This document shows, in pieces, positions 3,995 to 32,273 of a stretch of DNA of 64,000 nucleotides. The translations under genes were made by a program, and so were the position numbers. The notes under the pieces are model-generated. The model ran no database searches. It was not told the DNA's origin and saw nothing but the letters and a program-made list of their open reading frames with translations. The stretch is from a virus. Positions within the stretch are counted from its first letter, which is position 1, and every line of letters begins with the position of its first letter. Where the stretch lies: positions 64,001 to 128,000 of IMG/VR virus record IMGVR_UViG_3300022188_000007; one strand, written 5' to 3'.

Positions 3995-3995
3995 T

Positions 3996-4967: not shown

Positions 4968-5075
4968 GGACAGGCTCGTTGCTGGTGAGATAGCCTCATT
5001 AATCCAGTGATGAGAGGACGTTTTAACTACCAACCTGAGTGCTATTTAAAAAAATAACAGGAGGAAAGAATAAAT

Positions 5076-7780: not shown

Positions 7781-7794
7781 GGAACTAATAAAGA

Positions 7795-8802
7795 ATGCTG
7801 CTAGAGGATGAGGAAGTTGAAAGACTTATTACAAGAATTTCTACAGGAGTAAGCATTAGTATAATTGGAGATAAACCAATTGTATTTAAATTCCCTAGCA
7901 ATATGGTTAAATTAGAAGCTGATGTTCTTTATGATAAAGAATACCAAGACGCTATTGATAATGGCCTATTAAATAGATCCTCATTAGAAGAATTAATTGA
8001 AAAAAGAAATTTATTCACTAGAGAGGATCAAAAGAAATTGGATGGCTTGAAAACAAAGCTAGAAGGGCAAAGAATTTTACTTGCCAAAACTACAGTTGTA
8101 AAAGCCAATCAATCTAGAATTAAGGGAGTTATGGCAAAATTAAAATCTGAGATTTATGAGCTTACTACCCAGAAGACTTCCAAGCTTATGATGTCTGCAG
8201 AAGTAAAAGCTAACGAAGAGAAGTCATTATTCCTATGTTGGAGATGTACTTTTAGAGCTGATAAATTATTATGGAAAACTTTTAAAGATTTTAAACACAC
8301 TACTGATTTAAAATTTAGAGATAAAGTTTTAACTCCATTCCTTATATTTTATTCTGGTTTATCAGCGGATGAGATTAGATTTATTGCTCGTCATAATCTT
8401 TGGCGAATTAGGTATGTTAATAGTCAAAAATTATCTGAAGCTTTATTTGGAGTTCCTTCTACAGAATATACAACTGATATGTTAAGTTTAGCATATTGGT
8501 CAAACTATTATGATAATATATACCAAATGATGTCGGAAGATAGACCTAGTGATTTAATTATAGAAGATGATGAAGCACTTGATGCTTTCATGAAAGCTTT
8601 TTACGAGGAAAGGACCCGCGAGGACGCCGCAAGGCGAAGTAAAAGTAGGTCACCAGGTAAACTATCAGCATTTGATTCCGAAGAAGTTATAGTAACAGCT
8701 TCTAATGAATTGTACCAAGATATAGAATATGATACTCCAAGAGAAGCCCAAAAACTTAAAGAGAGAAATGAAATTAAAAAAAGGACAAAGAGGACTGGCT
8801 AG
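7795..8802 (+). CDS. Putative second tail assembly chaperone (pre-TMP protein)
   Basis: Immediately upstream of the TMP; coiled-coil N-half similar in layout to the preceding gene; 'WSNYYDNIYQ...RPSDLIIEDDEALDAF' C-terminal block. Confidence 0.45.
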   Translation: MLLEDEEVERLITRISTGVSISIIGDKPIVFKFPSNMVKLEADVLYDKEYQDAIDNGLLNRSSLEELIEKRNLFTREDQKKLDGLKTKLEGQRILLAKTTVVKANQSRIKGVMAKLKSEIYELTTQKTSKLMMSAEVKANEEKSLFLCWRCTFRADKLLWKTFKDFKHTTDLKFRDKVLTPFLIFYSGLSADEIRFIARHNLWRIRYVNSQKLSEALFGVPSTEYTTDMLSLAYWSNYYDNIYQMMSEDRPSDLIIEDDEALDAFMKAFYEERTREDAARRSKSRSPGKLSAFDSEEVIVTASNELYQDIEYDTPREAQKLKERNEIKKRTKRTG

Positions 8803-8867: not shown

Positions 8868-11800
8868 TTGGTTAAAAAATATATATTCGAACATGCTTCA
8901 AATGAATCTAAAACATCTAGTAAGAGCGGAGGTTCTAAAGGCGTAGCGGTTGTAGAACTTTCCAAATCCGATCAAGCAAATCAGAAAAAAGTCCATGATG
9001 GCTTAAGAGAGATCAAGGAAGTATTAAAAAAACAAACTAAAGACACTTCTAGTAGCGCACTAATGCGCATGCTGGAAAAAGTCATAAAGGCTTCAGGCCA
9101 ATCTTCTAAGATAAGTTCGGCAGAACTTAAAACACTAGCCACAGCTTTCGCAAATGAACTCTCACGCAAGGGTTTTGGAGGGAGTGGTAGTGCTACAGTT
9201 TCCGGCCCACAGGGCAAAGCCTTAGATCCTAATATTATTGCTAAAGCAATAAGTAACCAAATAGCCCCAGCCCTGAAATCAGTTTTCAAATCTTTAGAGA
9301 CTAAAGATATTAAAATTGATCCTAAATCCCAAGAAGCTCTTCGTAAAGCGATGGAGTCTTCTGTATCTGATATTATCCCTTCAAAATTCTATAAAGTAAT
9401 AAATGACTTAAATTCTACACTTACCTCTGTGTTGGCGTTAAGTAAGACTAGCTTAAAGGCGTTTAATTCTGCAAAAGGAATGGCCTCTGACAAAGGCGGT
9501 CTTGAAGTAAAAGAGATTACTGGTTTTTATACTAATTTAAAAAAAGGAAGTAGCGAACTAAAAACTTTAGTAGGTCATATCAGTTCTCTTGTAAGAGAGG
9601 CAGATAAGCTTCCAGCTGAGCTTAGGGCTGCCGCCAAAGGTATGATAGACGCCGCCAGAGAAGCAAAAGATAAAACGGTACGTGGTGCTAGGGCGGTTCG
9701 TGAGGGAGCTCAAGTCCCTCAAGCCAAACTTGTTAAAGAGGTTACTAAACTTTTAGCTTCAGAGATAAAAAAACACACAACTGGTTCCACCAATCCAGCC
9801 GTCAACAATCTTATAAAAGCCCTTGATACTTTTAGTTCTAGCGCCGATGAGTTGACTAAATTAACTAAAGCACTTGATAATTTTGGAAAATCTATAGGCT
9901 CATTACAGTCAGACGGCGGAGTAGACCTAAAAGGCCTTCAAGGTGTATTGGGTAAGTTAGAAAAGACTATTAGTGCTATACCAACAGAAATTAAAGGTGG
10001 GGCTGTAAAAAGTGATGAGTGGAAGGATTTCATAGATCAGGCTAATAAAGTTATAAACACTGTAAAAACATTAGTTGTAAAGATTCAATTACCTAAAGAT
10101 GAAATAGATAGGTTCGTGAAACAGTTACCAGGTGAGTTTGACGTGGTAGCTAATATAGACATTTCTAATGTGCCTAAGGCTATAAAAGAAATAACTAAAC
10201 CGGTAGGTATACCAGTTAAGACTATCTTTTCTGCAGATGACATACAGAGGCGATTACGTTATGAGCATCCTGAAATTAGTGTAACCCAGCGAATCACAAC
10301 AGTTCATAAACAAGTCGAGGAATACCAATCTTCTAAGTCAGGTAAAGCCGTTAAAGAAGTTAGTTTACCTAATGCTAAGAGTGAAGCAGTTAAATTTTCT
10401 AAGGATCTTAATACTAGTGTAAATAATCTAATAAAAGTCTTAGAAGGGCTAAGTAAAGTTCATGCCACTGCTTACGGGAAACCGGTAGCTCAAGGATCAG
10501 CAGGAGATATAGCTAGTGATAGAATATCAGAGTTAATACATAAAATCCAAGACAAGAGAGGTAATACCTCTCAATTAAGGGAGTATGTAGATAAAACTCA
10601 AGGCCATGCCCATAAGACAGGAATACTTAGTCAGGCTGCCAGAGATGGGATTAAAGAGGTATATGAGATATTACACTCTACAACTGATGATGTTTTTAAT
10701 TCAGTTAAAAAATCTTCAGATCAAGCAACAAAGAATCTTGAGAGTGTAAGTAAGGCCTTTGATGCTGTAAATAAATCTTCGAAACAAATGGCAGACACCG
10801 CTAAAAATAATTTAGCTCAAACCCAACCATCTACAATACCTAGTAGTAGGCATGGAGCAACGTCAGTTAACACTGCCAGACAGGCACCTGCTTCTACTCA
10901 AAAGGAAGTATATAAATACTTTGAAGGTAATATCACACCTGGCAAGACAGCAAATATTGATGCAGGTAAGAAGTTAAATCTTGGAGAGGATTCTAGGAAG
11001 ATAGTTCAAGAGCATGTAAGCGGTTTAGCAAATTCGTTGTTAGACTTACAGTCGTATATGGTATCAACCCTTGAGAAAGAATTTGCTAAAGTACGTAAGG
11101 AAAGCAACTCTGGTAAAGATTGGAGGATAGTAGGTAAAACTGATACTGGCTCTATATCCGATTATTTTAAACTCACTGAAGGGTATAATCAAAAAACTTC
11201 AGGCAACGAGTATAGTTTTAAAATTGCGGATGTAAAAAATCTTAAGAGGGTTACTGGTAGTAAGACTAATGACCCCACAGCATTGATTAGTAAATTTAAA
11301 GAAGGGGTGTTTAAAGAGTTATTAGCTAAGAATGAAGCTACTATAGCAGAGTCAATTGGTAGATGGATGAAAAGGTTCTCAGAATCAGATATTTCTAGTT
11401 GGAAAGGGTTAGACTCTAGTACAGCAAGGCAATTAGCCGATATCAAATCTACCCATGATAAGGGACAAGGGACCGCACCATCCAAGAGGATGGTAGAGGC
11501 TATAAAGGGGTTAGGGGCTACAGACCCATCCGCCTTAAATAGAATATTTGAAAAGACAATTAGTGACATTGAAGCCACTCGTAGATTAGGCGAGAGAAAG
11601 TATGGCAGCTCAGTTCTAGTTAAGAAAATAGCTATACCAGCAGCTAAATTATCTGCAACTGGAGCGGCTACTATTGACACAGCTACTGGTAGTAAACGTA
11701 TCATTCCTAAATTTGCAACGTATAAAACCGGCTTTGAGAAGGTCTTCGAATCACTACAGAAAACTAAAACTTTTGATGTAGAGCAGGATTATCAAGGTAA

Positions 11801-14800
11801 AGTTAGGAAATTGGGAATCAGGCCTTCCGGCACCCAGTTTGAGGAAGCAAATAAAGTAGCTAAAGCAATGTTGATAGACCTAAGTAGGGTCAAGGATATT
11901 GTAAATGCTACAGGACAGACTACAGTGGATTCAGGCGCTGTTAGGGCTGATCTTGCTAAGCAACTAGAAACCTCCGTCGTATTAAAGGCAGGAAAATTAG
12001 AAAAATCAAAACACGTGACATCGGCTTCCGATGTATTAGCAAAAATAGACAAGAGTATTTATGCTGAGTTTGCTTCGGGCACAAAAACAATGGAAGAATT
12101 CATAGCTGCTACTTCTAAGGCCGGAGTATCTGCTTATGATCTAGTTAAAGGTATGGAGAGTATAGACTTTCAAAATATATACCAAATTTTTCAGAAGATA
12201 CTTGAGGGAACTGACTCTGTTAGTTCACCTCTTAAAGCTGTAGGAAAGAATCCAGATTTTTCTAAGAGTGTGAGGGATTTGGAATCTTATATTGGTAAAA
12301 TGGTGGGCACCATACCTATAGCGGACCCATCTCGCCCAAGACGGGCGTCTCATCAAGAAAAAGTAATTAATCTTATGAGTATGACCTCCCCTATTTACAG
12401 TCAAAAAGGTAAGGTAGGTACACAAGGATTGACCGCAGAAGGCCAGAAACAGTTCCTTAGAGATTTGAACTTATCTTTGCGGGAGTTTGTCAGGGATACA
12501 GCTATATTAAAAGATGCTGGTATGGGGCAGGGTAGATTACCCGCAGATGTTAGGACTCTATCTAGTTTGGGAGTACCTGAATCTCAAGCTGGAACTATAT
12601 CAGAATATAGAAAAGACGGTAGAAATGAAAATACGAAATATCTGGCTGCTCTTAATGCTACGACTGTTAAAATGTATTCTGATTCACTTTCAGAGATGGC
12701 TCCGTTTGGAGCACAATTTCAACAACTAGGTAGGAATATTTCCAACACTACTAATGCTATGGCATATAGACCTGGTGGAGGAGGGGTAGGGACAGACTTC
12801 CCAAGTTTACGTTCTGAGAGAGAAACTAAGTTGATCTCTGGCGGAAGGTACGGCGACAAAGGTTACGGTTTTAATGTTATAGCAGAGTTAAGAAACACCG
12901 CCTCTACTTTTGAAGATCAGATAGTAATATCAGGGAAGCTTGCTGATGTATTAACTTCTGTAACTAAGACTATAGTTCAACCAGATAAATTAGGTAGATT
13001 GAATTTAGTTGGTTCAGATGGCCAAGTGTCCTCATCACAGGAAGGTAGGGTAGGAGATATTAAACCTGATCAACAGTTAATAGGTGCTATTGAAACCGCC
13101 AATAAAGTATTTCAGGATGTTCTAGGAGTTAAACAAGAGTACAGAGGTAGAGCTGATAACGCACTTATCAAAGAGGTAACGAGTGCTTTAACTACCGTTA
13201 GAGGTAAAGATGTGCAAGTCCAGTCAGCCAAAATAGCTGAAACTTTTTTTAACCACTACGGTAGAAAGTTTACTACTAGGTATGGGTCCAAGGGTGTTTC
13301 TATAACAGCTCCTGGCGGTACAGGTGAATTAACAGGTAAGCAGTTAAAAGATTTATATGCGGATAAGAAAGTAAAAGTTTTAAGTAAGTCTGAAAGAGCT
13401 ACTGCTGGATTAGGGACTGTAGCTTTACCTAAAAGTATGGGACAATTAGTGCAGGAAATATATAAGGAGTATGCTAAAGAATTAGGACTATCTAACGCGG
13501 ATCTGGATGAGTCTCGTAAAGCGCTTATTAATAGTGGTAATAAATTCATGCTTAGTATGTTCACTGATTCATCCTTAGGGGTAGTTCCTGAAGGCAAAGA
13601 CGTAAAAGCACAACAGACTTTATTTACTAAAACAAAAAAAGCTTTAGCTAAGTTAGATTTTGATTTAGCTAAAGATATTAGCGGTATAGAGGGCTTAATT
13701 GAAGTTTATAAAGGAATGGATGGCTCTAAATTATATGAAGAAAAGCCTATAGATATTCGTATTAGTTCTCATGGTATTGCTAAGCGTGGACTTCAGGCTG
13801 AGAATCTAGAAGCTATAATGAATAATGTCATAGATGCTGGAGTTGCAGGTTCTACATCTTTAAAAACTAAATTTGACCCAAGTACTTATAAAAGATTATT
13901 GGGTACAGAAGAAGACACTACTGGTAAATTTCCAAGTCTTAGTGAGATTAGTAAGGCTTTAGGTTTTGAGAGTCAAGGTAATCCTAAAAAAAGAGGTCTC
14001 TTAGTCAAGGACATGATGAAACTACTTAAATCTAGAAATGTCCCGGGCACTGAGGATAAGTTACTAGCACAAGCCGGAAAACTAGCTGATTTGGAGATTG
14101 GATCTAGTTTCTATAGTGATATGCGAGATGAGTTTGGAAAGAGCAGGAAGAGCCTAATAGGGCCCAAATTCGTTGAAGTAATCGAAGACCCTAATGCAAA
14201 TCCAGCATGGAGCGAAACTGATATAAAGAAACAGGTAGCCGGCCAGAAGATAAATATACCTGCCTTCGGCGCTTATGCTACTGTATTTGGCGAGCAATCC
14301 CAATTCATTAAACAGATGACCTCATCTATTCCTTTAGACTCTAAGAAGCACTGGGAGTACTTAAAAGCTCTACAGGTATTAAATGATGACAGTTCAGAGA
14401 TGGCAACGCAGTTGTTATCCTCTGCTCAAGAGGTAGACGTAAGTAGTTTAAGAACCTTTACAAAATCTACTGGAAAATTTGTATCTAGAGCATCAATGTC
14501 TAATATAACTGAGATGCCTGAAGAAGATCAAGAGAGGGTTTTAAATGATACTATATTGGATATTGCAAAATTTCCTGGAGCAATGAATTTAAAAATACCT
14601 AGTACTAAAGATCCTTCTAAACGTGAATCTTTTTATGTACCAGGTGCATTAGCTCGTACTACTTACCCTGAACCTTCTTTGGCAGGAGAACGCGGCCTAG
14701 ATATGACGGCTCGTAGATTACAGGCAGTCGTAAACGCGGCAAAGAACGTAGACGAAGTAGCCGGCCAGTCAGATGAGTCAGGTAGTAAAAAGTTATGGAA

Positions 14801-23800: not shown

Positions 23801-26800
23801 AAAACAGGACTATAAAGAAGATTATAGTTCAGACTTTATTGATAAGTATTATGATCCCCTACAAAAGTATAACACAGCCAAATCTGCCTTAGGGGGAGAC
23901 AACGCCTCATTGGACGCCTCAGTATTAGGAGGTCTGGCCGAACAACTTCGAGGCCTACAAGATATTTTAAAAAACAATTCAATAGCTTTTCAATATAGAG
24001 CAGCAATAGAGGATTTAAATAAAGCACTGTATGAGGGGGCTAGAGCCACAAGGAAAAGTATACTTGTAGAACAAGAAAGGCAAAAAGTTGATAAACATAC
24101 TGCTGGGTTTATGCGCGGTAAAACTAAAGGCGTGGCTTCTATTGATCAGGGGGTTACTAACTATAAAGATTTAAATGATCAGCAAAGAGCCTCGTTAATG
24201 TTTAAAGATTATGATGCCCTAGCAAAGAAAATTCTTGTACAAGAGACTAGTATTGAAGGCTTAATAGGCCAGTCTAAGTCAGTTGCAAGCACCTATGCGG
24301 ATATCCAAGAGATAGGTAAAGCTCCTGAAGGTTTTGATGCAATAATGACTAGGGGCCGTAATGTTGAGTTAATGAGTATTATGGATAAAGTAGATAACGA
24401 TAAGGGGGCTGCTCAAATTTCAATGAGAGTTTCGGAACTGAAGTCTCCTTTAGAGGGTATTTTAGCGAACACCGACATAATGGCCGCCAATACCTATGGA
24501 AGACCAGGGGATATTAAAAGAGCTGCAGCTACTGCAGAAGAGAACTTAGTTATAGCCGAACAAAGGAAGCTTGCAGGTAAAGGCCCATTGGATAATACTG
24601 TTGACAATAAAACTGATCCAGTGAAAACATTCAAAAGTCTTCAGAAACTAATGACCATCAGAGACGCCGCCGCAAAGGAAGGAGATACTGTTACTGTACG
24701 TGCACTGGACAATACACTTGCTGATTCTTATGGTAGGGCTTTGAAAGTATATGGTATGAAGGATTTTGCTAGGTTAACTAAACTAGTTGCTCCTACCAAG
24801 TTTTTTTCTTCCAATAACAAGGAATTAGTGGCATCAAGGGCATCCGCTTTAGCACAAAAAGGTATAGGTACAACTCCAGACAGAATGATGCAATCTATAG
24901 AGTCTGCTAAGATGGCAAAAGCCGCCCTAAGGACTCAGAGCTTTATTGATAAGTTAACTGCCTTTAAAGCCCCTGAGAAAGAGATCGAGCGTGCAAAGAA
25001 TAGGCAGTGGTATGTACCTTCTAAAGAAGTAAGGGACTATGAAAAAGCCTACGCAACAGATCCCAGTAAACCACTAATAAATCCTAAAATATTTGAGAAG
25101 GCTCTAATCGCTGGAGCAATACTTCCTGCTTTTCAGGGGAAATCTTTGGGTGAGAAGAGAACTACTATAGAAGATCAAATAAACAGGTTACAGAAACAAA
25201 AAGATAATTACCCTAAGGAAGGTAAAGAGGCTGAAAAGCTAGGGATTGATAAAAAAATAGAAGGCTATCAAAAGATATTAACGGATGATTTAGATCCTCA
25301 ACAATTTGTAACTTCCACTTTACAAGGGCTATCAACAACAGCACTTGCTGCATACGAAGGGGTGGGAATATTCGGAGGCTCCCAGTCTGATAAAGAAAAT
25401 ATGGCTGCCGTAGGTGCAGGTCTTTTTGTTATAATGAAATCACTAGAGTCTAGAATAGGTAAAGACAATATGCCACAATATTTCAAGGACTTTTCTAAAG
25501 AAGCAGTGGATAAGATTAAGATCGCGGTTGAAACAGGAGATTACTCTGATATGGCCAATGATCTAGGTAAAAAAACCAAAAAGTTTTTAAAGGGTTTTAA
25601 TAAGTCCATGGAAGCTCAAACCGAAAAGGCGGAAGACGCAGGCATTGACCCTGAGAAAGACATTAGAGAACGTCGTAAAAGACTAAAAAAGTTAAATGCT
25701 ACCCTGGATCTGGAGAGTACTACTAAGTCTCTTAATGAGGTCACTGATGTAGGGAGCAACAATTTGTTGAGAGGGTTAGAAGCCATAGCAGTTGTAATGA
25801 CTGCGCAAGCAGTTGGGGGCTGGAAATCTAAAAAAGGGGAAACAGCAGCCAGAGTCAAGGATGGTGTAAACGTAGCTAAACAACAAGGTCTAGCTTCTTT
25901 AGCTTACTCTGAAAAGAATGCTGCAGCCGTAGATGCCTACATAGGAAAGCTTGTACTGACCCAAAAGGAGTTGGCAGAGAAGAAAGGTCCTGATGGCGGA
26001 GCAATTAATATAGTTATGGATGTTATGGAGGACTTTAAAACTAGTTTAACATTGGCTGCTGCCGAAGGTAAAACACTTGAGGAAGCAATGTCAGGGCTTC
26101 AAGATAAAATAGGTGACACTAAAGTTTTTACCGGTATTTACACAGATGTGGCTAAATTAATAGGAGCTATGGAGAACTTTAGAGCAGAACTTCAAAAATC
26201 ATTTACAACTTTTGATGATAAACGTTTATTAGATCCTACACGTTCTTTAAAGGGAGAGTTATTGGGTTTTGGGGGCGAGACAACTCTTCCAATAGGTAGA
26301 CGTGACATGTCGACTCAACAAAGAGCTTACGCAGGTGGGTCAGACTCCTTAAGGTCATCCTTTGCAGTAATGTCTAAAGGGATTTTGATACAAGAGGCCC
26401 AAATAAAAACTTTAGGTTTTGTTAGATCTCAGATAGCTGACACTGAACAAAATATAGATTTTGGTACCAAATATGGAACATCTGATTCACAATTAGAAGC
26501 TTGGGAGATGCACTTAAAGGGGCTTGAAGGCACTCTGGCTAACTTACAAAACGTGACTACTTTAACTAGCCAACAGTTGCAGGCGTTGGGTACTTCTATG
26601 CGAGGGGCTATTAAGTACTCAGAGGCTATCAACAAATTAAATGATGCTTTGGCAGATGTTTCTGTGGAGCACGCTGTAACTGGTATAACAGGATTAAAAA
26701 CTTATTTTGATTCTTTTGAGGTGTTGCTAGGTGGCTCAGATCCGTTAGCCGCCCAACCTGTTTCACCAGAACAAGAAAGAATGGGAGCTAAGGTAGGAGT

Positions 26801-29800
26801 AAGATTAGTTTCTGGTGAATCAACCTCTATGGATATAGAACGTGCCCAGTTACTCACAGAGATAAAGAATGCCACAGACTCTAAATCTAGAACTGCTGCT
26901 AGTATAAAACTAGGAGATCTTGATGAGAAGTATAGAAGGTTAGGTATTGATAAAGAACAACAAGTCGAGAACCAGCGGCTTGGTTCTACTATGAAGCCTT
27001 ATGAGGATTTTTACCGTAATATGGAAGGGTTGTTAGGAAGTAATGAATTAAATGATAAACAATATGGAGAAATTAGTGGCGTTAAAAATGAATTTAAAGA
27101 AGCCATGAAAAGAGCTACGGAAAAAATACCTATAGATGAGGCAATAGCTCAGCTGGAAGGGCAAAAAGACAACTTAGGGGCTAATCAATTCAAGGAAGCC
27201 ATGAAAGAATTAGTGGCAATGAAAGCAACAGGGACTACACAAGTATATAGAGGTATGGATAGAACCAAAGACTGGCAAGGTATTATGAGTAGAGTCATGG
27301 CAGGTTATGATAAAGAAATAGATGCATACAAGGCTGCAACCGGTACTACTGATTTAGATACTTCTTTAGAAAACATGGTAACTAACCCACTAGTAAATGT
27401 TATTGGGATGTCTAATCTACTTCTAGCTGAATTAGTGACACACTTTGTAGACAAAAAAACTGCGGCAGACATACTCAATGGGCCTCAAAAAAAAGAGTTA
27501 GAACCAGATTACTTATTTTCTTCAATAGTCCCTGATAAAAAAGTTGTATTAGCAGAAGCACAAGATTTTCTGAAAGGCATTAGTATTAATCCTGCGGACA
27601 ATTTAAAAACACAGCCATATGATTTCAATAACGACAATATTGATCCAAATAGAGGCCGCCCTACATTGTTTGGTAGACCTGTAGGTCCAATAAGTAAAGA
27701 TGCGCTTGGGTTGCCTCCAATACAAGATAAGGTAGTACCTCCACCTCCAACAGAGGTCGAATTAGCTGCTAAAAAGCATCCTAGGTTTAAGGAAATGGAG
27801 ACTTACGTGAAAAATATAAGCCTTGATCCTATAGCTAATTTAAAAACAGAGCCATTTGGCCCTAATTCTGAGCAAGACAATTCACAAATTGTAGCTGTAA
27901 ATGAACTTCAGTTAGTAACTCTAAAAAAAATAGCTACCAGTCTTAGCAGTAATGGTTCTGGTGATTCCACTGAACCTACTACTAAAGCCGCAGGCGGAAG
28001 AATCTTTGGAGAAGGTGGTCCAAGAGAAGATAAGGTACCCGCTTATTTAAGTCCAGGAGAGTTTGTAATAAGAGCAGCTGCTGCACAACGGCTTGGTTAT
28101 GAGAATCTAGATGTAATGAATAAGAAAGGGCAGGTCCCTGTGGCTTTTGAGAGTGGGGGCTCCTTAAACCAGAGGCACATAACACAAGCACATCAGTATT
28201 TTGTAGATCCTGATGCGGTACTGCCCCCAGAGTTTAATCCAGAGTCAGAGCTATATAATAAAGGAATAACAGGTAAATATATTGATTTACGGAAGTCAAT
28301 GCTTTCTGAAGAACAGCGGGAAGCTGTTGCAGGTATCTCCACATTAAAGGGATTATATAATACTTTTTCTGATATGGCTGGTAATGATGAGGATAAATTA
28401 AATTCTTTATTTCCTGAAGATATAATGCCTGTAATGGAGCGTTTCGAAGAGAACAAAAAAGCCCAAGAAGAGAAAGGTATATTGGGTTGGATGAAAGGAA
28501 AATTAAAAACCAAAAATAAGGCAACAGCAGGTGCAAGGGCAGTTACAGGCCTTGATAAGGCCGAGTTATTAAAAGAAATAAGTACCTATGCTGACGGTGG
28601 CCGAACCATTAGTACTGTTACTGGTAAACCTATACCCACAGCAGAGGAAACAGAAGAGGGTATGGCAAAGATGCGAGAAGCTTTAGGTTTTGTAGCTTCT
28701 GTAGGTCACCCAATTACTTCTATCCCCACCTCTATCTATGGCATGTATCAAGGTTTTAAAGAAAAAGGTCTTAGTGCCCAACCAGCTGTTGAAGGTTTTG
28801 GGGGCTTAGAACTATTAAATTATATACCACAGGCTAAAAGACTCGGTAAAATGAAAACAATTTTAAGTAAAGGTTTTGGTAGATATTTTGATAACGCAGG
28901 GGACGTGAATGATTATTTTGATATTACTGGTAAGTTAGGGGGTAAACTAACTTCATCACACGGAGATGATTTTGACGCGTTACTAGCTTCCGAGAATACT
29001 TTTGAGGAGGGCGGCTTATCTCTTTGGGATAAATTACTGGGTAAACAGTTCGATCCTACAGAGAGATGGAAGGGTAAAAAGTTACCATCAGGTATGGGAA
29101 AATTTGATAAACCTGAGGTGACAAAAAAATTAGAAGACGAAATAAAAGCTACAAAACGCCATGATGTTCATTCTTTTAGTTTCCTACGCGAAAAACATGG
29201 TTTTGTGAAAGCATTACAACTTTATGGTGCAGGATCTCGTTTACAAGAAGGGGCAGATATATTAAAGAAGGCTGATGGTGGTAAGATAAGAAGTTTTATA
29301 GGTGATTCCACAGGAGTAGCAGAGGTAGGAGAAGAGTTATTTAATGAAAGAATCAATGCCCCTGTACTAACTCGGTCTGTGGCCAGTATGATTAAATCAG
29401 AGTTTGGCACCTCAGACGTAGGTAACAATCAATTAGGTGCGCCAGTAGATAAATTAATGGGCACTTCGTTTGATCCATCTGCTACCATGTTAAAAGATAG
29501 TAGAGCTTTTACAGCTGTTGGTAATAATATAAAATCATATGCTTCTACAGCCGATTTTAATACCGGTAGAGCGAAGTCTGATAAATTGAAGGGCAATATA
29601 GGTAAAGGTAATATAATCCCAGGTATGGATGGATTAACCTCTATATATGATGGATTCTTAACTTCCAAATACAATAGCCCCTTCTTATCGCAAGAAGAGC
29701 AATCCAACAATAGGGCTTGGTATGAAGCCACTAGAGAGCAAGAGATAACCAATAAACAGAAATATGAATTATTAGGTGATGCAAAAACAGACGCAGATAG

Positions 29801-32273
29801 GAAACAGCTTACTGACTACTGGCAGTCTGTGGGTAAGGCTGCTCCAAGTAAGTTTGCTGATGGAGGGAATGTCGATGAAGAAGAGCCTGTGATTGAGTGG
29901 GGACATACTACTGCTAAAGCTGTCATGGATAAATGGACAGCGGAAGCTAAAGATGCGGCTATGTATAGATCGTTACATGCTATGTCTAGTGCTGAAGATT
30001 TTGCATTAAAATTGGATAGAAATAAAAAAGCTAGAACCGACATGACCAGAATTCTAGCTGATAACGAATACTTAGATAAAGACACCCAAGAAGGGTATGA
30101 TTATTCATTTGATAAACACCGAGGATTAAGAATACTTACTGATGAAGATTCGGGGGTGAAGGTAGGTAGAGTAATTACTAAGTCATATCGTTCTGTAGAT
30201 GAAAGTTATAGACCTAGATCTATGGCAACTGTTAAGAAACAAGTACATGACCCATTTGCTATATCCGAAGATGCTTATTCTTCTGGCGCGCTTACTGATT
30301 TCTCCGAGAGATTATCTCTAGACAGTAACTATGGTAATGAGGCTTTTAGGTACCACGGTGAGGGCCGTGATATATGGAAGAATATGCAACGCTATAAGAA
30401 ATTATTTTATGGCTCTCCGGGTGAAAGTAAAGCATCTGAAGGGTATTTAGCAAAATTTCAAGCAGGCCAAAAGAACCTTGATAAAGTACGTTTAGTGATG
30501 AAGGTTTTAGAAGAAGGTGGTAATATTTATGATGACTCCAGACTTCAACAGAAAGTGGGCGGACCAGCTAGGTTAGAGGCTTTTGATTTTGGAGGTAAGA
30601 AAGGTACTGTAGATATACCTACTAGAAATTTCAAAAGAGCTGAACTACTTAAAGAATTACAAGCGTTATATGGGGATGAATCTCAAGGGGCCATCATTAG
30701 TGCTGAGAGGATAAAGAATGAAATCTCCGCTTTAAACGCGCAGAAAATAGAAACTTCTGATGGTACAGTGGAATACATAAGGGCAGATGAACAGAAATAT
30801 ACGTCTGTTTTACAGGATATTAAAGACGCCGCCGTAATTGCACGAGGTGAGTTAGATCCTAAAGGCAAAAATGCAAGAAGACGGGCTGTTACAAGAGCTC
30901 AGTCCCCTCTATTATATAATTATTCTAATACGCTACGGGACAAAGAATTGGCAAGAGCAGGGTTCCTAAAGCAGACTGGCCCACCGAAAGATTTTTCCGA
31001 CTTCGATAAAAAAGATATTCCAGATATGAAAAAATGGCTGGCTGCTGGAGATTATGGCTATGTAACTAGTGACACAGTGCAACGAATGAAGGACTTTATT
31101 ACGAGTGAGACATACAATGTGGGTGGTGTAGCTACTAGATCTATGCCAGTTAAACATTTTGGCGGTGTGGTAACACAAACTGGCCCAGTATTTGCTCAGA
31201 AAGGTGAATACATTATACCTAAAGGATTTAAAGATGGTACTTCGGGTTTGGGTGGTGTAACCTCCAGTCCAGCTTCCCAAGCTTTAACTTCAGGATCGAT
31301 GAGATTAGATGGTTCTGAGGTATTATCACAATTAAATAGTTTAAGTTTAAAGGTGGATAATACTACGGTTAAGGTAGACACTACTGAGGCAGCAAGTAGA
31401 CTATCATCTTCTATTAGTGATGCTTTTAGTGGTATAGAACCATTTAAAGTAGAAGATAAAACTCTATTAGTAGAAGATAAGGTTTTCTCAGTAGAAGATA
31501 AAAAGTTAACTGTGGAAGATAAAACTTTTACTATTGAAGATAAAACTTTTAAGGTAGAGGATAAAATTTTCTCAGTAGAAGATAAAAAGTTAACTGTGGA
31601 AGATAAAACTTTTACTATTGAAGATAAAACTTTTAAGGTAGAGGATAAAATTTTCTCAGTGGAAGACAAAAAATTAACCGTGGAAGACAAGGTTTTTACT
31701 ATTGAGGATAAGGTTTTTAAGGTAGAGGATAAAATTTTCTCAGTGGAAGACAAAAAATTAACCGTGGAAGACAAGGTTTTTACTATTGAGGATAAGGTTT
31801 TTAAGGTAGAGGATAAAGTACTAACAATAGATGCTTCTAATATTTCAGTAGATATCGGCGATGCAGAGGCTAGATTAGCTTCAGCGATTAGCAATGCGAT
31901 TAGTAGTGCGGTAGTTAATATAAAAGTTGAGGCCCCTACTACTGGAGGGTCAGTCGGCGCGGATAAATTCGATCAGTTAGCCCAAACAGTATCAGATGTA
32001 AACGATAAACTTATAAGTAGTTCTGTGATTATGGAGAGTAGAGTGAAGATTTTAGAAGGGGGTATAGACTTAGTTGTGGATGAAAGCGTGGAAAAAAAAC
32101 TAGCTTCTAAATTGATGAGTATTAATGAAAGTGTAACAGGGGCTCTCTTGAGTGTAGATACTGTAGCTAATAATGTAACCACTCAAATAGATAGTATAAG
32201 ACGTGAGTCTAACGAAATAAAATATCTAGCACATATGGCTTTAAATGCTAGAGGTTCAGGAAATATAACTTAA
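8868..32273 (+). CDS. Giant tape measure protein (7801 aa) fused to a two-barrel RNA polymerase and a PD-(D/E)xK nuclease
   Basis: Single uninterrupted ORF with TTG start after AGGGGGG; position after tube and chaperones; TP901-like TMP core at aa ~3960-4280; RNAP and nuclease motifs in the N-half (see sub-features). Confidence 0.9.
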   Translation: MVKKYIFEHASNESKTSSKSGGSKGVAVVELSKSDQANQKKVHDGLREIKEVLKKQTKDTSSSALMRMLEKVIKASGQSSKISSAELKTLATAFANELSRKGFGGSGSATVSGPQGKALDPNIIAKAISNQIAPALKSVFKSLETKDIKIDPKSQEALRKAMESSVSDIIPSKFYKVINDLNSTLTSVLALSKTSLKAFNSAKGMASDKGGLEVKEITGFYTNLKKGSSELKTLVGHISSLVREADKLPAELRAAAKGMIDAAREAKDKTVRGARAVREGAQVPQAKLVKEVTKLLASEIKKHTTGSTNPAVNNLIKALDTFSSSADELTKLTKALDNFGKSIGSLQSDGGVDLKGLQGVLGKLEKTISAIPTEIKGGAVKSDEWKDFIDQANKVINTVKTLVVKIQLPKDEIDRFVKQLPGEFDVVANIDISNVPKAIKEITKPVGIPVKTIFSADDIQRRLRYEHPEISVTQRITTVHKQVEEYQSSKSGKAVKEVSLPNAKSEAVKFSKDLNTSVNNLIKVLEGLSKVHATAYGKPVAQGSAGDIASDRISELIHKIQDKRGNTSQLREYVDKTQGHAHKTGILSQAARDGIKEVYEILHSTTDDVFNSVKKSSDQATKNLESVSKAFDAVNKSSKQMADTAKNNLAQTQPSTIPSSRHGATSVNTARQAPASTQKEVYKYFEGNITPGKTANIDAGKKLNLGEDSRKIVQEHVSGLANSLLDLQSYMVSTLEKEFAKVRKESNSGKDWRIVGKTDTGSISDYFKLTEGYNQKTSGNEYSFKIADVKNLKRVTGSKTNDPTALISKFKEGVFKELLAKNEATIAESIGRWMKRFSESDISSWKGLDSSTARQLADIKSTHDKGQGTAPSKRMVEAIKGLGATDPSALNRIFEKTISDIEATRRLGERKYGSSVLVKKIAIPAAKLSATGAATIDTATGSKRIIPKFATYKTGFEKVFESLQKTKTFDVEQDYQGKVRKLGIRPSGTQFEEANKVAKAMLIDLSRVKDIVNATGQTTVDSGAVRADLAKQLETSVVLKAGKLEKSKHVTSASDVLAKIDKSIYAEFASGTKTMEEFIAATSKAGVSAYDLVKGMESIDFQNIYQIFQKILEGTDSVSSPLKAVGKNPDFSKSVRDLESYIGKMVGTIPIADPSRPRRASHQEKVINLMSMTSPIYSQKGKVGTQGLTAEGQKQFLRDLNLSLREFVRDTAILKDAGMGQGRLPADVRTLSSLGVPESQAGTISEYRKDGRNENTKYLAALNATTVKMYSDSLSEMAPFGAQFQQLGRNISNTTNAMAYRPGGGGVGTDFPSLRSERETKLISGGRYGDKGYGFNVIAELRNTASTFEDQIVISGKLADVLTSVTKTIVQPDKLGRLNLVGSDGQVSSSQEGRVGDIKPDQQLIGAIETANKVFQDVLGVKQEYRGRADNALIKEVTSALTTVRGKDVQVQSAKIAETFFNHYGRKFTTRYGSKGVSITAPGGTGELTGKQLKDLYADKKVKVLSKSERATAGLGTVALPKSMGQLVQEIYKEYAKELGLSNADLDESRKALINSGNKFMLSMFTDSSLGVVPEGKDVKAQQTLFTKTKKALAKLDFDLAKDISGIEGLIEVYKGMDGSKLYEEKPIDIRISSHGIAKRGLQAENLEAIMNNVIDAGVAGSTSLKTKFDPSTYKRLLGTEEDTTGKFPSLSEISKALGFESQGNPKKRGLLVKDMMKLLKSRNVPGTEDKLLAQAGKLADLEIGSSFYSDMRDEFGKSRKSLIGPKFVEVIEDPNANPAWSETDIKKQVAGQKINIPAFGAYATVFGEQSQFIKQMTSSIPLDSKKHWEYLKALQVLNDDSSEMATQLLSSAQEVDVSSLRTFTKSTGKFVSRASMSNITEMPEEDQERVLNDTILDIAKFPGAMNLKIPSTKDPSKRESFYVPGALARTTYPEPSLAGERGLDMTARRLQAVVNAAKNVDEVAGQSDESGSKKLWNTVGRIKKRLAGYRGRVKGIVGESPGTKQLTSGEVGELEGILSTLLVTLDQSSADERMLYKNQQHLKGGTRGDVIRAFKDNKSGEGKSQAQVYQTTIDQAVDQLIGPQGSPDPKNPQWASRYDKQANVLGGKAYNAGLASVEQFAKSLNVQPSDSEDDLKKALQSLERAKIEYYNTLATSALGKTGSVQEFLFNRKMPAVMGKAINATVDKTEDLDNFSKELLSISSSAGGIGVDLSALEEASENIKKIKIEHAENVESARSKGMPVLTQHQVGIPESYASKLPTNFARRYEVDGGTVQELKKPIFEKSNLAKMLDYREEIQGALDNVAPGMRSKMEAYLESELSPYLESMRFPVTGVASIQPYEAKLLKQGEGRQMTKHTLMAPGMPEIDMGKFDAAKKQVDSVIDELTEQRKLEYKEESPDLERINQLTATIAALDKAISDVIPKFIAVQQNLDFDGDQIQLHAAKTALARQEISQHFKTITDYDKQGGTTAQALRDQSTYKALIPSTEKYTLAEQQIAFSKKFPEKEGFGFMTKPFLTEGLDYLKPQEQLDILSTFPGAGGTENTPLTVLNNLLPELFRNEKHMAKIAMTLQAVKPEAGKDTASSQALLNALAKMKPVEDQPSSGREKAVFEEGIKTKLYDTKMTNAINANFFKLNTGQDTEALNRQLKLFERNLGYGGGVIRQGAQYEPTANLASRFPLDLKSMGNTMGEELHTMMNEFLRVGVQKGLDVKHAGETPIATEMANLISKGSPGVSSLIEKINAGEGSYGDLTDFAEANKKSLGRRLGGMSTEDLYLDAASIAGGRGESTTKLDPGNREELKEYITKSIGFEGFLHELSNQVIEAAHEGLMKSVSAWSDTKKQKEFKGSSAEDYVKASIRKQLKGDGINILDSAESPLMPLYKMRTSGASGYQQRGLYQDKYGDVEAPELEGIFQGKEADAYAAKYKEAKAVAKNIQDALIDFSSNKGGNKKGSYSMLLESSIENIYADQKEIMKLVQEMTLEKDRTSSSVMDRLSGDAPMHGFAREALGKKNSKTQKEFLEKYSRIVGVPSLGQESTALLKQEYLPQAAFLANAEKGPAPLQGETTDGAYQDILDAHDKAVDKLKEQYLADAIVIAQTDNILKAAKTKTGEATFLTQLLPTSKGDYASKSYDDRRQRISQIAKEKVQRANFEQLTHPRGLERDAFGRSMPSGGGPGGPGALSVGGTGPIVDVNIASVAEGVGVFLGRAAGMAKTTEDTSPRFTISEELEKKLVRAEEIVDEITGGLNKATGDSFANKYRASGLKGGQGLDQINEIKKQMQGIKAGRKARDILDSSSLLGTGIHAKLEDSYKKEYITERPVRYDSVAGEISGTVDAIKYDDNEIATHIVDIKTTSQKNYDDLKQAVARFQEKTGKETPTLDEIKDYVGKNLKDSKLGDVASQLNLYLAATSEDAKASAHFYSRTNPDQEPIKLDQFFDKERLDNDVAAVGQARREIKLEGGSFAKTASYTEAEEIEVLLKKKEVAEATIAELIATSTEYYTLVTKQGLRARKNLPSTGGLSDKSLNMIGTRAREFQAQSVKFDDMVTANPIAEGRETYKVHQNLNVLHERAKYFQQKEGYETSGPRFDKMHPQIQERVTEHGEKGPGGAAFSALVTELKDTGKIEGGEINAAWKAYRLAVGDYFVKKMAAARKELDNTDPGADNIVNVFGAYQKSVQAFQDFAKHGLGKPTDIYTYNKQYLHAESARGAGIYMDSAALQKKASQPLGEDPTLRNIFQNMTNLEGDSVPIPRDSVRAALEDLMDMDRSLINLYTNAEKVAHMGKDINLGWNFDKVKGGLSRLRAALDLQLKQPVGELYNEDQITYLRTVLKELKGLETIYISLDLDTDSFKNPTGEYKFPTLVPVPKQLSRDQQSAMHYQNIEKIKGHYRTPEAEGGAREGDSFVYNAKTFGPSGKQMDNQRFVISKYGEAINSAGKSVPILKSRLDNLNKSLVDGNRTFSVAIERVVKWGAAATLVYGGLSYIKDAVKHMSDVETAMARLQMVMNPLTTDFDSLQKAALGFAKQYGVETTDVLGSMKVFAQQGLSQGEVEERTQTSTLAANVTTLSAVDATEALTAAMKVFRAEGESSMRFLDSWSQVEARAAITAGDLADAIKKSASAGRNAGFTFDELNGMVAAIGSTTRQTGKEVGTSLRFIFRRISADKGPKALKGVGVATTTPKGTLRPGYKVLEDLAGKWEELEQAQKLSIAQAIGGTRQYNQVLVLMDNWDQVVKSTTDSMNAKGSAERRNLKLMKTYSKQLEQTKAVFSALKVEVGKVVLPSFKAGLTGIRGLVEAVNNVPASFKLAGAGMVLFVGYITKGAEALNTIMSLVDRTKLSFSALKDDFSKGIDKGMFEVFGKGTPELDSDLFGLSKLSDTGTVNIDDMESSLGKLAFGALSAGQAFNKFAGIVGSDSASAVSAVGKYVTAFGALVEKTGTGISLIPGIPGPVDEAVGVATSFTGKAIKGTGGAFDFVGDKVGKGAQSWMEGFASQNTSAMKSMAPLLGTLGGIALLAPTIIDAFKNLTQSATDYKDEQLNRLEVDAKEIDSLQGLITSYKNLQDQKEKITRLSDPKVQAKGIKRGEYKSPILEKIDALKATRTFDSNLGAMDPSMIAGFDEFGRVILSNTANLTGYLEELKRAKTVTLALSKLKIAARFTDDLTETGGNQEWKQQVKSLAAEFPLIGEMLAKNITVGPKKALEVIREELDQLLAAKAEAPMSTAFDSDIERSLTAHAKVLKTFSATYAELGKTLSSISTEGATVTDIADLYKSPDALKTFDLQAAYEDKYQIAEVRGTVSGRDIAASKVLRTQSSGLGSYIEASSVLTEANLFSAGRLPRKPKKDGTIGASDNDLVTLNKNFAEKYGIATGQATLKIGKDHKLFLEFIDALTTTPTTKEFSQAEIEAAARAFFPVDEILQKAQISVTKLNTFVAGASAGILGVSEKKLNTRQFDLGERFYDQIPTNVLLQTEKGYNTKTGTFGKQDYKEDYSSDFIDKYYDPLQKYNTAKSALGGDNASLDASVLGGLAEQLRGLQDILKNNSIAFQYRAAIEDLNKALYEGARATRKSILVEQERQKVDKHTAGFMRGKTKGVASIDQGVTNYKDLNDQQRASLMFKDYDALAKKILVQETSIEGLIGQSKSVASTYADIQEIGKAPEGFDAIMTRGRNVELMSIMDKVDNDKGAAQISMRVSELKSPLEGILANTDIMAANTYGRPGDIKRAAATAEENLVIAEQRKLAGKGPLDNTVDNKTDPVKTFKSLQKLMTIRDAAAKEGDTVTVRALDNTLADSYGRALKVYGMKDFARLTKLVAPTKFFSSNNKELVASRASALAQKGIGTTPDRMMQSIESAKMAKAALRTQSFIDKLTAFKAPEKEIERAKNRQWYVPSKEVRDYEKAYATDPSKPLINPKIFEKALIAGAILPAFQGKSLGEKRTTIEDQINRLQKQKDNYPKEGKEAEKLGIDKKIEGYQKILTDDLDPQQFVTSTLQGLSTTALAAYEGVGIFGGSQSDKENMAAVGAGLFVIMKSLESRIGKDNMPQYFKDFSKEAVDKIKIAVETGDYSDMANDLGKKTKKFLKGFNKSMEAQTEKAEDAGIDPEKDIRERRKRLKKLNATLDLESTTKSLNEVTDVGSNNLLRGLEAIAVVMTAQAVGGWKSKKGETAARVKDGVNVAKQQGLASLAYSEKNAAAVDAYIGKLVLTQKELAEKKGPDGGAINIVMDVMEDFKTSLTLAAAEGKTLEEAMSGLQDKIGDTKVFTGIYTDVAKLIGAMENFRAELQKSFTTFDDKRLLDPTRSLKGELLGFGGETTLPIGRRDMSTQQRAYAGGSDSLRSSFAVMSKGILIQEAQIKTLGFVRSQIADTEQNIDFGTKYGTSDSQLEAWEMHLKGLEGTLANLQNVTTLTSQQLQALGTSMRGAIKYSEAINKLNDALADVSVEHAVTGITGLKTYFDSFEVLLGGSDPLAAQPVSPEQERMGAKVGVRLVSGESTSMDIERAQLLTEIKNATDSKSRTAASIKLGDLDEKYRRLGIDKEQQVENQRLGSTMKPYEDFYRNMEGLLGSNELNDKQYGEISGVKNEFKEAMKRATEKIPIDEAIAQLEGQKDNLGANQFKEAMKELVAMKATGTTQVYRGMDRTKDWQGIMSRVMAGYDKEIDAYKAATGTTDLDTSLENMVTNPLVNVIGMSNLLLAELVTHFVDKKTAADILNGPQKKELEPDYLFSSIVPDKKVVLAEAQDFLKGISINPADNLKTQPYDFNNDNIDPNRGRPTLFGRPVGPISKDALGLPPIQDKVVPPPPTEVELAAKKHPRFKEMETYVKNISLDPIANLKTEPFGPNSEQDNSQIVAVNELQLVTLKKIATSLSSNGSGDSTEPTTKAAGGRIFGEGGPREDKVPAYLSPGEFVIRAAAAQRLGYENLDVMNKKGQVPVAFESGGSLNQRHITQAHQYFVDPDAVLPPEFNPESELYNKGITGKYIDLRKSMLSEEQREAVAGISTLKGLYNTFSDMAGNDEDKLNSLFPEDIMPVMERFEENKKAQEEKGILGWMKGKLKTKNKATAGARAVTGLDKAELLKEISTYADGGRTISTVTGKPIPTAEETEEGMAKMREALGFVASVGHPITSIPTSIYGMYQGFKEKGLSAQPAVEGFGGLELLNYIPQAKRLGKMKTILSKGFGRYFDNAGDVNDYFDITGKLGGKLTSSHGDDFDALLASENTFEEGGLSLWDKLLGKQFDPTERWKGKKLPSGMGKFDKPEVTKKLEDEIKATKRHDVHSFSFLREKHGFVKALQLYGAGSRLQEGADILKKADGGKIRSFIGDSTGVAEVGEELFNERINAPVLTRSVASMIKSEFGTSDVGNNQLGAPVDKLMGTSFDPSATMLKDSRAFTAVGNNIKSYASTADFNTGRAKSDKLKGNIGKGNIIPGMDGLTSIYDGFLTSKYNSPFLSQEEQSNNRAWYEATREQEITNKQKYELLGDAKTDADRKQLTDYWQSVGKAAPSKFADGGNVDEEEPVIEWGHTTAKAVMDKWTAEAKDAAMYRSLHAMSSAEDFALKLDRNKKARTDMTRILADNEYLDKDTQEGYDYSFDKHRGLRILTDEDSGVKVGRVITKSYRSVDESYRPRSMATVKKQVHDPFAISEDAYSSGALTDFSERLSLDSNYGNEAFRYHGEGRDIWKNMQRYKKLFYGSPGESKASEGYLAKFQAGQKNLDKVRLVMKVLEEGGNIYDDSRLQQKVGGPARLEAFDFGGKKGTVDIPTRNFKRAELLKELQALYGDESQGAIISAERIKNEISALNAQKIETSDGTVEYIRADEQKYTSVLQDIKDAAVIARGELDPKGKNARRRAVTRAQSPLLYNYSNTLRDKELARAGFLKQTGPPKDFSDFDKKDIPDMKKWLAAGDYGYVTSDTVQRMKDFITSETYNVGGVATRSMPVKHFGGVVTQTGPVFAQKGEYIIPKGFKDGTSGLGGVTSSPASQALTSGSMRLDGSEVLSQLNSLSLKVDNTTVKVDTTEAASRLSSSISDAFSGIEPFKVEDKTLLVEDKVFSVEDKKLTVEDKTFTIEDKTFKVEDKIFSVEDKKLTVEDKTFTIEDKTFKVEDKIFSVEDKKLTVEDKVFTIEDKVFKVEDKIFSVEDKKLTVEDKVFTIEDKVFKVEDKVLTIDASNISVDIGDAEARLASAISNAISSAVVNIKVEAPTTGGSVGADKFDQLAQTVSDVNDKLISSSVIMESRVKILEGGIDLVVDESVEKKLASKLMSINESVTGALLSVDTVANNVTTQIDSIRRESNEIKYLAHMALNARGSGNIT
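11630..17050 (+). other. Domain: single-chain beta/beta'-like DNA-dependent RNA polymerase inside the TMP (aa ~920-2720)
   Basis: Collinear motifs: TFEDQIVIS (12909), GRKFTTRYGSKG (13260), PIDIRISSHGIAKR (13746), GKTGSVQEFLFNRKM (15345), HQVGIP (~15609), MRFPVTGVASIQ (15849), NLDFDGDQIQLH (16158). Confidence 0.9.
18640..19230 (+). other. Domain: RecB/Cas4-like PD-(D/E)xK nuclease inside the TMP (aa ~3260-3450)
   Basis: GTGIHAKLE (18762), ERPV, ISGTVDAI (18858), IVDIKT (18912), QLNLY (19068) appear in canonical order. Confidence 0.8.
20739..21720 (+). other. Domain: TP901/PhageMin_Tail-type tape-measure core
   Basis: 'VETAMARLQMVM...ALGFAKQYG...FAQQGLS...TLAANVTTLSAVDATEALTAAMKVF...AGFTFDELNGMVAAIGSTTRQTGKEVGTSLRFIFRRI...IGGTRQYNQVLVLMDNW'. 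Confidence 0.88.
31443..31820 (+). repeat. Coding tandem repeat: 18 x 21-nt (xx[V/I]EDKx heptads), including 4 x 84-nt higher-order units
   Basis: 84-nt units start at 31485, 31569, 31653 and 31737; units 1 and 2 match each other, as do units 3 and 4. Confidence 0.95.

Follow-up and report, generated by a model that had tools for sequence, protein, structure and literature searches.

The window analysed here, a 64,000-nucleotide stretch of DNA that covers bases 64001–128000 of the 144,485-bp linear IMG/VR virus record IMGVR_UViG_3300022188_000007 (CheckV completeness 55%), contains a single open reading frame (ORF; 8868–32273, + strand) of 7,801 codons with zero internal stops. We propose, with a probability of roughly 0.7, that its product is the tail tape measure protein (TMP) of an uncultured large phage, which also carries an RNA polymerase (RNAP) and a nuclease. 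The plan put forward in the initial annotation of the window, an RNAP, a PD-(D/E)xK nuclease and a TMP in one chain, is real and is conserved in a family of homologues. The giant protein is a variant, larger in size and more modular in build, of the tape-measure-fused virion polymerase, as known from gp96 of Thermus phage P23-45, a 5,002-aa TMP of which the N-terminal ~1,200 residues are an active two-barrel RNAP (Chaban et al. 2024, PMC10770324). The statement that the combination had not been described therefore fails for the RNAP–TMP fusion. In the literature searched, we found no further paper on tape-measure-fused polymerases, and the added nuclease and the lineage described here appear undescribed.

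A word-indexed search returned 83 near-full-length homologues of 4,530–7,998 aa, all of which contain the Pfam domain PF10145. By BLAST coverage, nearly all of these homologues share two blocks, aa ~700–2900 and aa ~3600–5100. The first is the RNAP module, which is found in 80–83 of the 83 homologues and is the best-conserved part of the giant protein; the second is the conserved tape-measure region.

The RNAP module is composed of four consecutive parts, all on the + strand: a β-like N-terminal half (lobe/protrusion; aa 701–1277; 10968–12698), a β-like catalytic half assigned from invariant motifs and hhalign, which includes the region of the second double-psi β-barrel (DPBB-B; aa 1278–1840; 12699–14387), a β′-like N-terminal part comprising a clamp-like region and DPBB-A (aa 1841–2470; 14388–16277), and a conserved continuation (aa 2471–2900; 16278–17567) covered in 81–83 of the 83 homologues, with invariant K, G, E, R, Q and K columns. 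The β motifs follow each other in order: APFG..F..GRN, FEDQI (E1349, D1350), GRKFTTRYGSKGV (K1467, K1475) and PIDIRISS. After PIDIRISS come the further colinear motifs LGKTGSV..F.RK, RFPVTG..S.QP and NLDFDGDQI.LH, the last of which includes the metal-binding DFDGD (aa 2433–2437; 16164–16178, +) with its three invariant aspartates. The β and β′ motif residues are invariant across 27–28 homologues, down to 20–30% identity, and among them are the catalytic residues E1349/D1350, K1467/K1475 and D2433/D2435/D2437; of 84 giant homologues, 83 contain a D[FY]DGD motif. The module thus contains a DPBB-A with a metal-binding DxDGD loop and, at the level of sequence, a DPBB-B with two lysines (GxKxxxRxGxKG) and the FED acidic pair. 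At aa ~2630–2720, ..NTGQDTEA.. is a candidate for the bridge helix and ..QKGLDVKHAG.. for the trigger loop, both assigned by eye.

The genomes of related phages encode stand-alone RNAPs that connect the giant module to known polymerases. One is a protein of 1,102 aa in G003, a 100% complete genome (L049:2712–6020, − strand), with Rpb2_6 followed by Rpb1_2 and a DFDGD near aa 806; another, of 1,178 aa, is encoded in G005 (87% complete; L050:1001–4537, + strand) and has the same domain order. In a Pfam search of these two proteins, one Rpb1_2 match clears the cut-off (25.6 versus 25.3 bits) and the remaining matches are just below it. They belong to a family of more than 235 members, which aligns with Escherichia coli RpoB (1031–1208, E = 2.6e-5) and with gp96 (714–788, E = 2.7e-5). 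In hhalign comparisons, the same family aligns with the β-like block of the giant (probability 96.9, E = 1.9e-10, 178 columns), with a second colinear β segment (E = 5.9e-5) and, around DFDGD, with the β′-like block (E = 5e-5).

Two AlphaFold models of 1,200 residues each were built on alignments of 27–28 sequences. The predicted folds of the β N-terminal half and of the β′ N-terminal half align colinearly with a cellular-type RNAP. Taken together, the data point to a near-full-size, single-chain RNAP of ~2,200 residues, β then β′, that is devoid of Zn-binding cysteines and appears to carry a clamp. The initial annotation had placed an RNAP in the chain, and the conserved motifs and hhalign comparisons agree with it; its boundaries (~920–2720) do not stand and are replaced by aa ~700–2900. 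In other searches, tblastn of aa 1001–3000 against 50,697 phage records gave no match, neither the RNAP stretch nor the nuclease stretch had more than chance matches among PDB sequences by phmmer, an ESM Atlas feature search with the RNAP stretch gave no usable match, and Foldseek of both models against the PDB gave nothing at E ≤ 0.001, the second model returning helical-repeat proteins only. When the family modules were aligned by hhalign with the single sequences of gp96 and of gp64, a second polymerase of P23-45, the correct motifs were matched, without significance.

The tape-measure part is identified by profile matches. PF10145 (PhageMin_Tail) matches aa 4014–4212 (20907–21503, +) over the full model, 1–201, and scores 97.4 bits where 33.2 are required (E = 1.3e-27). 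Of 12 PHROG matches in this stretch, 11 are tape-measure families, located over aa ~3900–4890, with E values down to 1e-79. These matches confirm the TMP core that had been recognized in the sequence, although the Pfam core runs from ~aa 4014, not from 3960. The conserved tape-measure region as a whole (aa 3600–5100; 19665–24167, +) is covered in 81–83 of the 83 homologues. It includes two hydrophobic, membrane-type segments (aa 4297–4315 and 4498–4516; 21756–22415 with the stretch between them, +), called from Kyte–Doolittle 19-residue windows of at least 1.5. Further downstream is a variable C-terminal part (~aa 5200–7526; 24468–31447, +) with four x-GG anchor motifs (aa 6427–6996), in which Pfam and PHROG found no family, and then an array of heptads, h-x-V/I-E-D-K-x (31448–31817, +). 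At the other end of the protein, an N-terminal leader (aa 1–700; 8868–10967, +) is Lys-rich in composition and, as judged by BLAST coverage, variable among homologues. The VEDK array shows a 28-aa super-repeat, and its 18 copies in the window compare with 10 in a second assembly, which reflects either real variation or repeat collapse in one assembly.

Between the RNAP and the tape-measure region, a Gly/Pro-rich linker, PSGGGPGGPG (aa 3170–3179; 18375–18404, +), precedes a Cys-free, Cas4/RecB-like PD-(D/E)xK nuclease domain (aa 3230–3440; 18555–19187, +), identified by its motifs and by profile search. The linker at 18375, the hydrophobic segments, the GG motifs and the VEDK heptads named in the initial annotation are all confirmed. 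The key residues of the nuclease are H3303, E3317, D3334, D3349-I-K3351 and Q3401..Y3405, within a motif span of aa 3299–3405. The motifs YRAS, GTxxH, E, GxxD, DIKT and SQxNxY stand in canonical order and are invariant in 17 aligned homologues, which upholds the earlier assignment of the domain. In a profile search of the PDB, Cas4 SSO0001 (4ic1) was the sole significant match (E = 9.5e-4), with an alignment that extends from GTxxH through the lysine of DIKT. PHROG 1706 (CRISPR/Cas-associated) matches with E = 3e-4, and Pfam PDDEXK_1 with E = 7e-4 and 20.0 bits against a cut-off of 22. The four-cysteine Fe–S cluster of Cas4 is absent, as the whole protein has no cysteine. The domain is probably an active RecB/Cas4-like nuclease and not a Cas4. 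The nuclease region maps in 56 of the 83 giants, and 27 of the 83 are without a PD-(D/E)xK domain.

An exhaustive HMMER search with the β′ module against 1.84 billion cluster representatives returned 115 proteins only. The family is therefore rare, yet its members were recovered from many samples, and the contigs that carry them reach 325 kb. The full-length HMMER members that were checked, including a distant set of 4,100–5,600 aa, are all RNAP–TMP fusions with D[FYL]DGD, the TMP core of the family and 0–2 Cys; the shorter or truncated members have 0–3 Cys and look like fragments. What lies between polymerase and ruler varies among the giants. In the most divergent relative (L034; G004:C1, ~108020), a 12,316-codon open frame, the slot downstream of the polymerase is occupied by an RNA ligase (PF09414), a LigD 3′-phosphoesterase (PF13298) and an RNase H-like domain (PF13456/PF00075), a cargo of RNA-repair type that replaces the PD-(D/E)xK nuclease. 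In another clade (L016, 6971–13489; protein P0075), an RNase_T (DEDD) exonuclease domain (PF00929, aa 307–415, E = 1.6e-8) is found in the leader before the polymerase, a position that marks a second cargo slot. In other members, precomputed Pfam assignments list lytic transglycosylase or PT-TG domains. A further relative (L029, 10001–14737) has two in-frame TAG codons within the polymerase region, which could reflect TAG recoding, a pseudogene or sequencing error. Host assignment turned up only three short contigs with family fragments (L040, L041 and L042; 16–50 kb), in metagenome-assembled genomes labelled Woesearchaeota, Fermentibacteria and Altiarchaeales; these are probably mis-binned phage contigs and are unreliable as host evidence.

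The stand-alone RNAP and the giant may occur together in further phages. For four stand-alone RNAPs and four giants the largest contigs are identical in size (325,297; 307,814; 311,571; and 275,832), which suggests, although it does not prove, that the two are on the same contigs in four further cases. In P23-45, gp96 transcribes the pre-early genes, including the gene of the second, non-virion polymerase gp64, and virions contain the gp96 polymerase within the full-length chain (PMC10770324). The stand-alone RNAP is likely to be the counterpart of gp64.

A computed count of the cysteines in the giant chain confirmed the by-eye impression of the initial annotation: there are 0 Cys in 7,801 aa, and the Zn-binding cysteines of β′ are absent, as are the Fe–S cysteines of Cas4. 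The 27 other large ORFs of the window together have 170 Cys in 12,065 aa (1.41%), a frequency at which ~110 would be expected in the giant chain and at which, by our own arithmetic, the probability of zero is ~1e-48. Read in its two other frames, the DNA contains 73 and 372 TGT or TGC triplets, and the absence of Cys therefore acts at the level of the protein. It is also family-wide: 84 giants hold 28 Cys in 612,816 aa (0.005%) and 67 of them have none at all, and across 25 related loci Cys makes up 0.010% of the giant ORF versus 1.27% of the ORFs directly upstream. In the stand-alone RNAPs, by contrast, Cys amounts to 1.62%, and each protein contains at least 9 (median 19). Among these phages, then, the TMP-fused polymerase has shed its cysteines and the free polymerase has not.

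The trait is not special to the giant chain. We counted 0 Cys in the 5,002 aa of P23-45 gp96, and distantly related long TMPs without an RNAP hold 183 Cys in 254,511 aa (0.07%). Cysteine avoidance is a general tape-measure trait that extends to the enzyme cargo. The RNAP-less TMPs led us to reject Cys-freeness as a mark of RNAP-bearing tape measures. A literature search on cysteine-free tape measures found nothing relevant. Because TMPs share the trait and the cytoplasmic stand-alone RNAP does not, the loss of Cys, along with the Zn and Fe–S sites, agrees with a chain that is kept outside the cell and has to be translocated and to refold free of cross-links and cofactors; the agreement is not proof.

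The chain is made as a single protein, and it follows from homology that its ruler part templates tail assembly. By analogy with P23-45 gp96, we infer presence in the virion, ejection, enzymatic activity and their timing as follows. The chain would be built into the virion with the tail. In lambda-type tape measures the C terminus is at the tail tip. In the same orientation, the enzyme half at the N terminus would be situated nearest the head, beside the DNA end. At infection the tape measure would exit first, with the hydrophobic segments helping to form a channel through the envelope, and the N-terminal polymerase and nuclease would then come in immediately before the DNA and reach the cytoplasm with its leading part. 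The polymerase would transcribe the first-entering genes, probably including a stand-alone RNAP gene, as in P23-45, and the nuclease might attack host DNA, act on incoming DNA or process DNA ends. An RNAP of ~2,200 residues with a clamp cannot plausibly pass the tube folded, so either unfolded storage and translocation, or cutting and packaging elsewhere, would be required. The proposal that the chain is stored unfolded in the tail, threaded and refolded is consistent with the data. At ~0.15 nm per residue, the whole chain would predict a tail of ~1.1–1.2 micron, and the stretch from aa ~3600 onwards alone one of ~0.6 micron; tails of 0.6–1.2 micron would be the longest phage tails known.

Several observations weigh against a tape measure that delivers a working polymerase. 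A full-size, clamp-bearing polymerase is implausible in the tube when folded, and unfolding and refolding must be assumed. Long TMPs in general are low in Cys (the 0.07% given above), so that low Cys is by itself no sign of passage of the enzyme half through the tail. DPBB-B (aa ~1285–1515) has a predicted local distance difference test score (pLDDT) below 50 and is helical in both models, which leaves the second barrel supported by its sequence only. Pfam PF00623 matches only locally, at DFDGD, with E = 0.003 and a score of 18.1 bits, or 20.7 bits on the genome, short of the required 25.3, and PF00562 has no match on the record. A five-sequence RNAP profile searched against the PDB found no RNAP, and hhalign against the single E. 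coli RpoB and RpoC sequences placed its top local matches on the right motifs but not at significance. Finally, a DxDGD scan and a query with the G003 stand-alone RNAP found no second RNAP in this 55%-complete, 144-kb fragment.

The size of the folded enzyme also bears on the alternative that the giant is a polyprotein. A phage protease would cut at linkers, for example at aa 3170, freeing the polymerase and the nuclease, and only the C-terminal ~4,000 residues would act as the ruler; the freed enzymes would go into the head or neck, where other large phages carry their ejection proteins, or would be active only in the producing cell. Such a scheme would relieve the problem that a full-size folded RNAP is, as we reason, too big for the tail tube, and it accords with the flexible Gly-rich linkers between modules and with enzyme modules that vary by lineage and occupy two slots, a pattern that separable cargo would show. 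Neither a protease gene nor a cleavage site for one was identified, however, and the enzyme half is as Cys-poor as the ruler, which is unexpected if the enzymes acted only in the cytoplasm of the producer, where the stand-alone RNAP of related phages has 1.6% Cys. The cysteine argument has its limit, as ejection cargo packaged in the head might also be Cys-poor. On balance we regard processing of this kind as unlikely.

If the giant is instead delivered whole by the tail, as we favour, is its enzyme half alive? The polymerase- and nuclease-like regions could be relics, catalytically dead filler that lengthens the ruler in a phage that relies on the RNAP of its host. Their sequences are too diverged for Pfam thresholds, the Zn and Fe–S cysteines of their cellular and Cas4 counterparts are gone, and the second barrel is without a confident model. 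Yet all tested catalytic residues, namely DFDGD, the FED pair, the β lysines and the nuclease set, are invariant down to 20–30% identity, the RNAP module is better conserved than any other part of the protein (80–83 of 83 homologues), and gp96, likewise Cys-free, is active. Dead filler is therefore very improbable.

Integrity of the ORF was assessed with independent data. Translation starts at a TTG with a strong ribosome-binding site, a Shine–Dalgarno AGGGGGG ~8 nt upstream; the preceding gene ends at 8802 and the following gene begins at 32290. The same protein is encoded by a second, independent assembly, an ENA contig of 318,366 bp. The first 7,580 and the last 185 residues of the two proteins are identical, and the sole difference between them is the number of VEDK heptads (10 in the ENA contig, 18 here). 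The second assembly and the homologues exclude a missed stop or frameshift as the source of the long frame, and the continuity of the ORF, on which the initial annotation depended, is secure. The idea that sequencing errors or a chimeric assembly falsely joined separate polymerase, nuclease and tape measure genes draws on the repeat count, which shows that repeats in the giant gene are assembly-sensitive, and on the two TAG codons of relative L029, but it is effectively refuted already by two assemblies that agree on everything except that count, by more than 100 homologues from many samples with the same unbroken order and by 7,801 codons without a stop at 39% GC.

A wider interpretation is that giant TMPs form a modular injection platform. 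Two cargo slots would flank a full-size, Cys-free RNAP, and the ~860-kDa chain would be extended or unfolded in a tail of more than 1 micron and would refold in the cell without metal–Cys cofactors, delivering transcription, attack on host DNA and RNA repair (counter-defence) before phage gene expression. The exchangeable cargo may be the Cas4-like nuclease here, the RNase T-type enzyme in another clade and the RNA ligase, 3′-phosphoesterase and RNase H of the 12,316-codon frame. We advance this platform tentatively, as a possibility that is less likely than not and more doubtful than our main proposal.

The neighbourhood of the giant gene may follow the usual order of tail genes. An ORF of 532 aa (5076–6674, +), 2.2 kb upstream of the giant ORF, is tail-tube-like according to ESM Atlas rows (Phi812_tail_tube, Phage_tube_2; TM 0.81–0.85) and has no Pfam or PHROG match. 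Two ORFs of 250 and 335 aa (7028–8802, +) are in the usual position of tail assembly chaperones, an assignment by position only; they and the downstream ORFs have no family match in Pfam or PHROG. The gene order would then be the canonical one of tube, chaperone slot and tape measure, with the tube-like ORF placed by the Atlas structure rows. The tail sheath families PF04984 and PF17482 have no match on the 144-kb record. Searches of 20 neighbouring ORFs against PHROG and Pfam gave only two matches, one to an HNH endonuclease and a weak one to Big_1, and the phage lineage is very poorly charted, as almost none of the 20 neighbour proteins were matched.

Nearly all large ORFs of the window (1–64000) are on the + strand, and the GC skew is steadily positive. 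The HNH endonuclease ORF (1913–2785, +; 17 Cys in 290 aa; PHROG 559, E = 3.5e-26) sits inside the structural block and may be a homing endonuclease. Two very large downstream ORFs, one of 1,863 aa with 39 Cys (53624–59215, +) and one that extends past the window (59645–64000, +, continuing to ~69817; in genome coordinates an open frame of 3,395 codons that encodes 33 Cys), have no PHROG match; these Cys-rich products are probably fibre or baseplate proteins.

Compared with known systems, the polymerase of the giant resembles the cellular enzymes RpoB/RpoC and Rpb2/Rpb1 and the split phage RNAPs (AR9 and phiKZ non-virion) in the order of the FED pair, GxKxxxRxGxKG, PxDI, RxPxxxxxSxQ and NxDFDGD. 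It differs from them in that both subunits are in one chain within a structural protein, in the absence of Zn-binding cysteines, in scoring below the Pfam RNAP thresholds and in having no evident α or ω partners. It would be a near-complete cellular-type β/β′ enzyme working, if it works, without Cys or a Zn site. The nuclease shares with the Cas4/RecB family, of which SSO0001 of Saccharolobus solfataricus is an example, the series GTxxH, E, GxxD, DIKT and QxxxY in canonical order. Unlike Cas4, it has no cysteines and consequently no 4Fe–4S cluster, and it differs from the Cas4/RecB nucleases in a ~45-aa insert between the DxK and QxxxY motifs and in being embedded in a virion-type protein and not stand-alone.

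The virion RNAPs of N4 (gp50) and of phi14:2, a crAss-like phage (gp66), are, like the giant, large virion proteins with a polymerase for first-round transcription, and they are fused to large regions of unknown function (PMC10770324). In our own data, one weak Foldseek row (6vr4) was obtained. Both phages have short tails and no tape measure, unlike the phage of the giant; N4 vRNAP is T7-like, not two-barrel, and phi14:2 gp66 is in a QDE-1-like clade.

The closest parallel in design is gp96 of P23-45 (Oshimavirus; with homologues in P74-26, G20c and TSP4). Both proteins place a two-barrel RNAP with DFDGD N-terminal to a TMP in one chain, and both have no Cys, in 5,002 aa and in 7,801 aa. P23-45 also encodes a second, stand-alone RNAP, gp64, and stand-alone RNAPs of 1,100–1,180 aa occur in complete relatives of the giant's phage. 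Our searches detected no similarity in sequence between the two giants: blastp gave nothing below E = 1.7, the family TMP profile hidden Markov model (HMM; built for the core in the PF10145 region) had no match, the RNAP HMM was not significant and the one stretch that hhalign aligned between the giant family and gp96 was the DFDGD loop (P = 0.04). At ~1,200 aa, the RNAP of gp96 is minimal; it occupies the extreme N terminus and is flat and clamp-less, a shape that its authors tie to passage through the tail (PMC10770324), whereas that of the giant spans ~2,200 aa after a 700-aa leader and appears to have β lobes and a clamp-like region. In the giant, the RNAP is followed by a nuclease, whereas the gp96 paper mentions neither a nuclease nor cysteine (PMC10770324).

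The result from P23-45 could have been a curiosity of one thermophilic group. The same solution, a tail ruler fused to a polymerase with a further stand-alone polymerase besides, is now seen in a sequence-unrelated, much larger protein family with 100-plus relatives in uncultured phages of 200–330 kb, which suggests that tail-delivered transcription may be a recurrent strategy. The giant family also points to exchangeable enzyme cargo beside the polymerase, and it provides an internal control for the demands of ejection, with 0.005% Cys in the fused enzyme versus 1.6% in its cytoplasmic counterpart of related phages.

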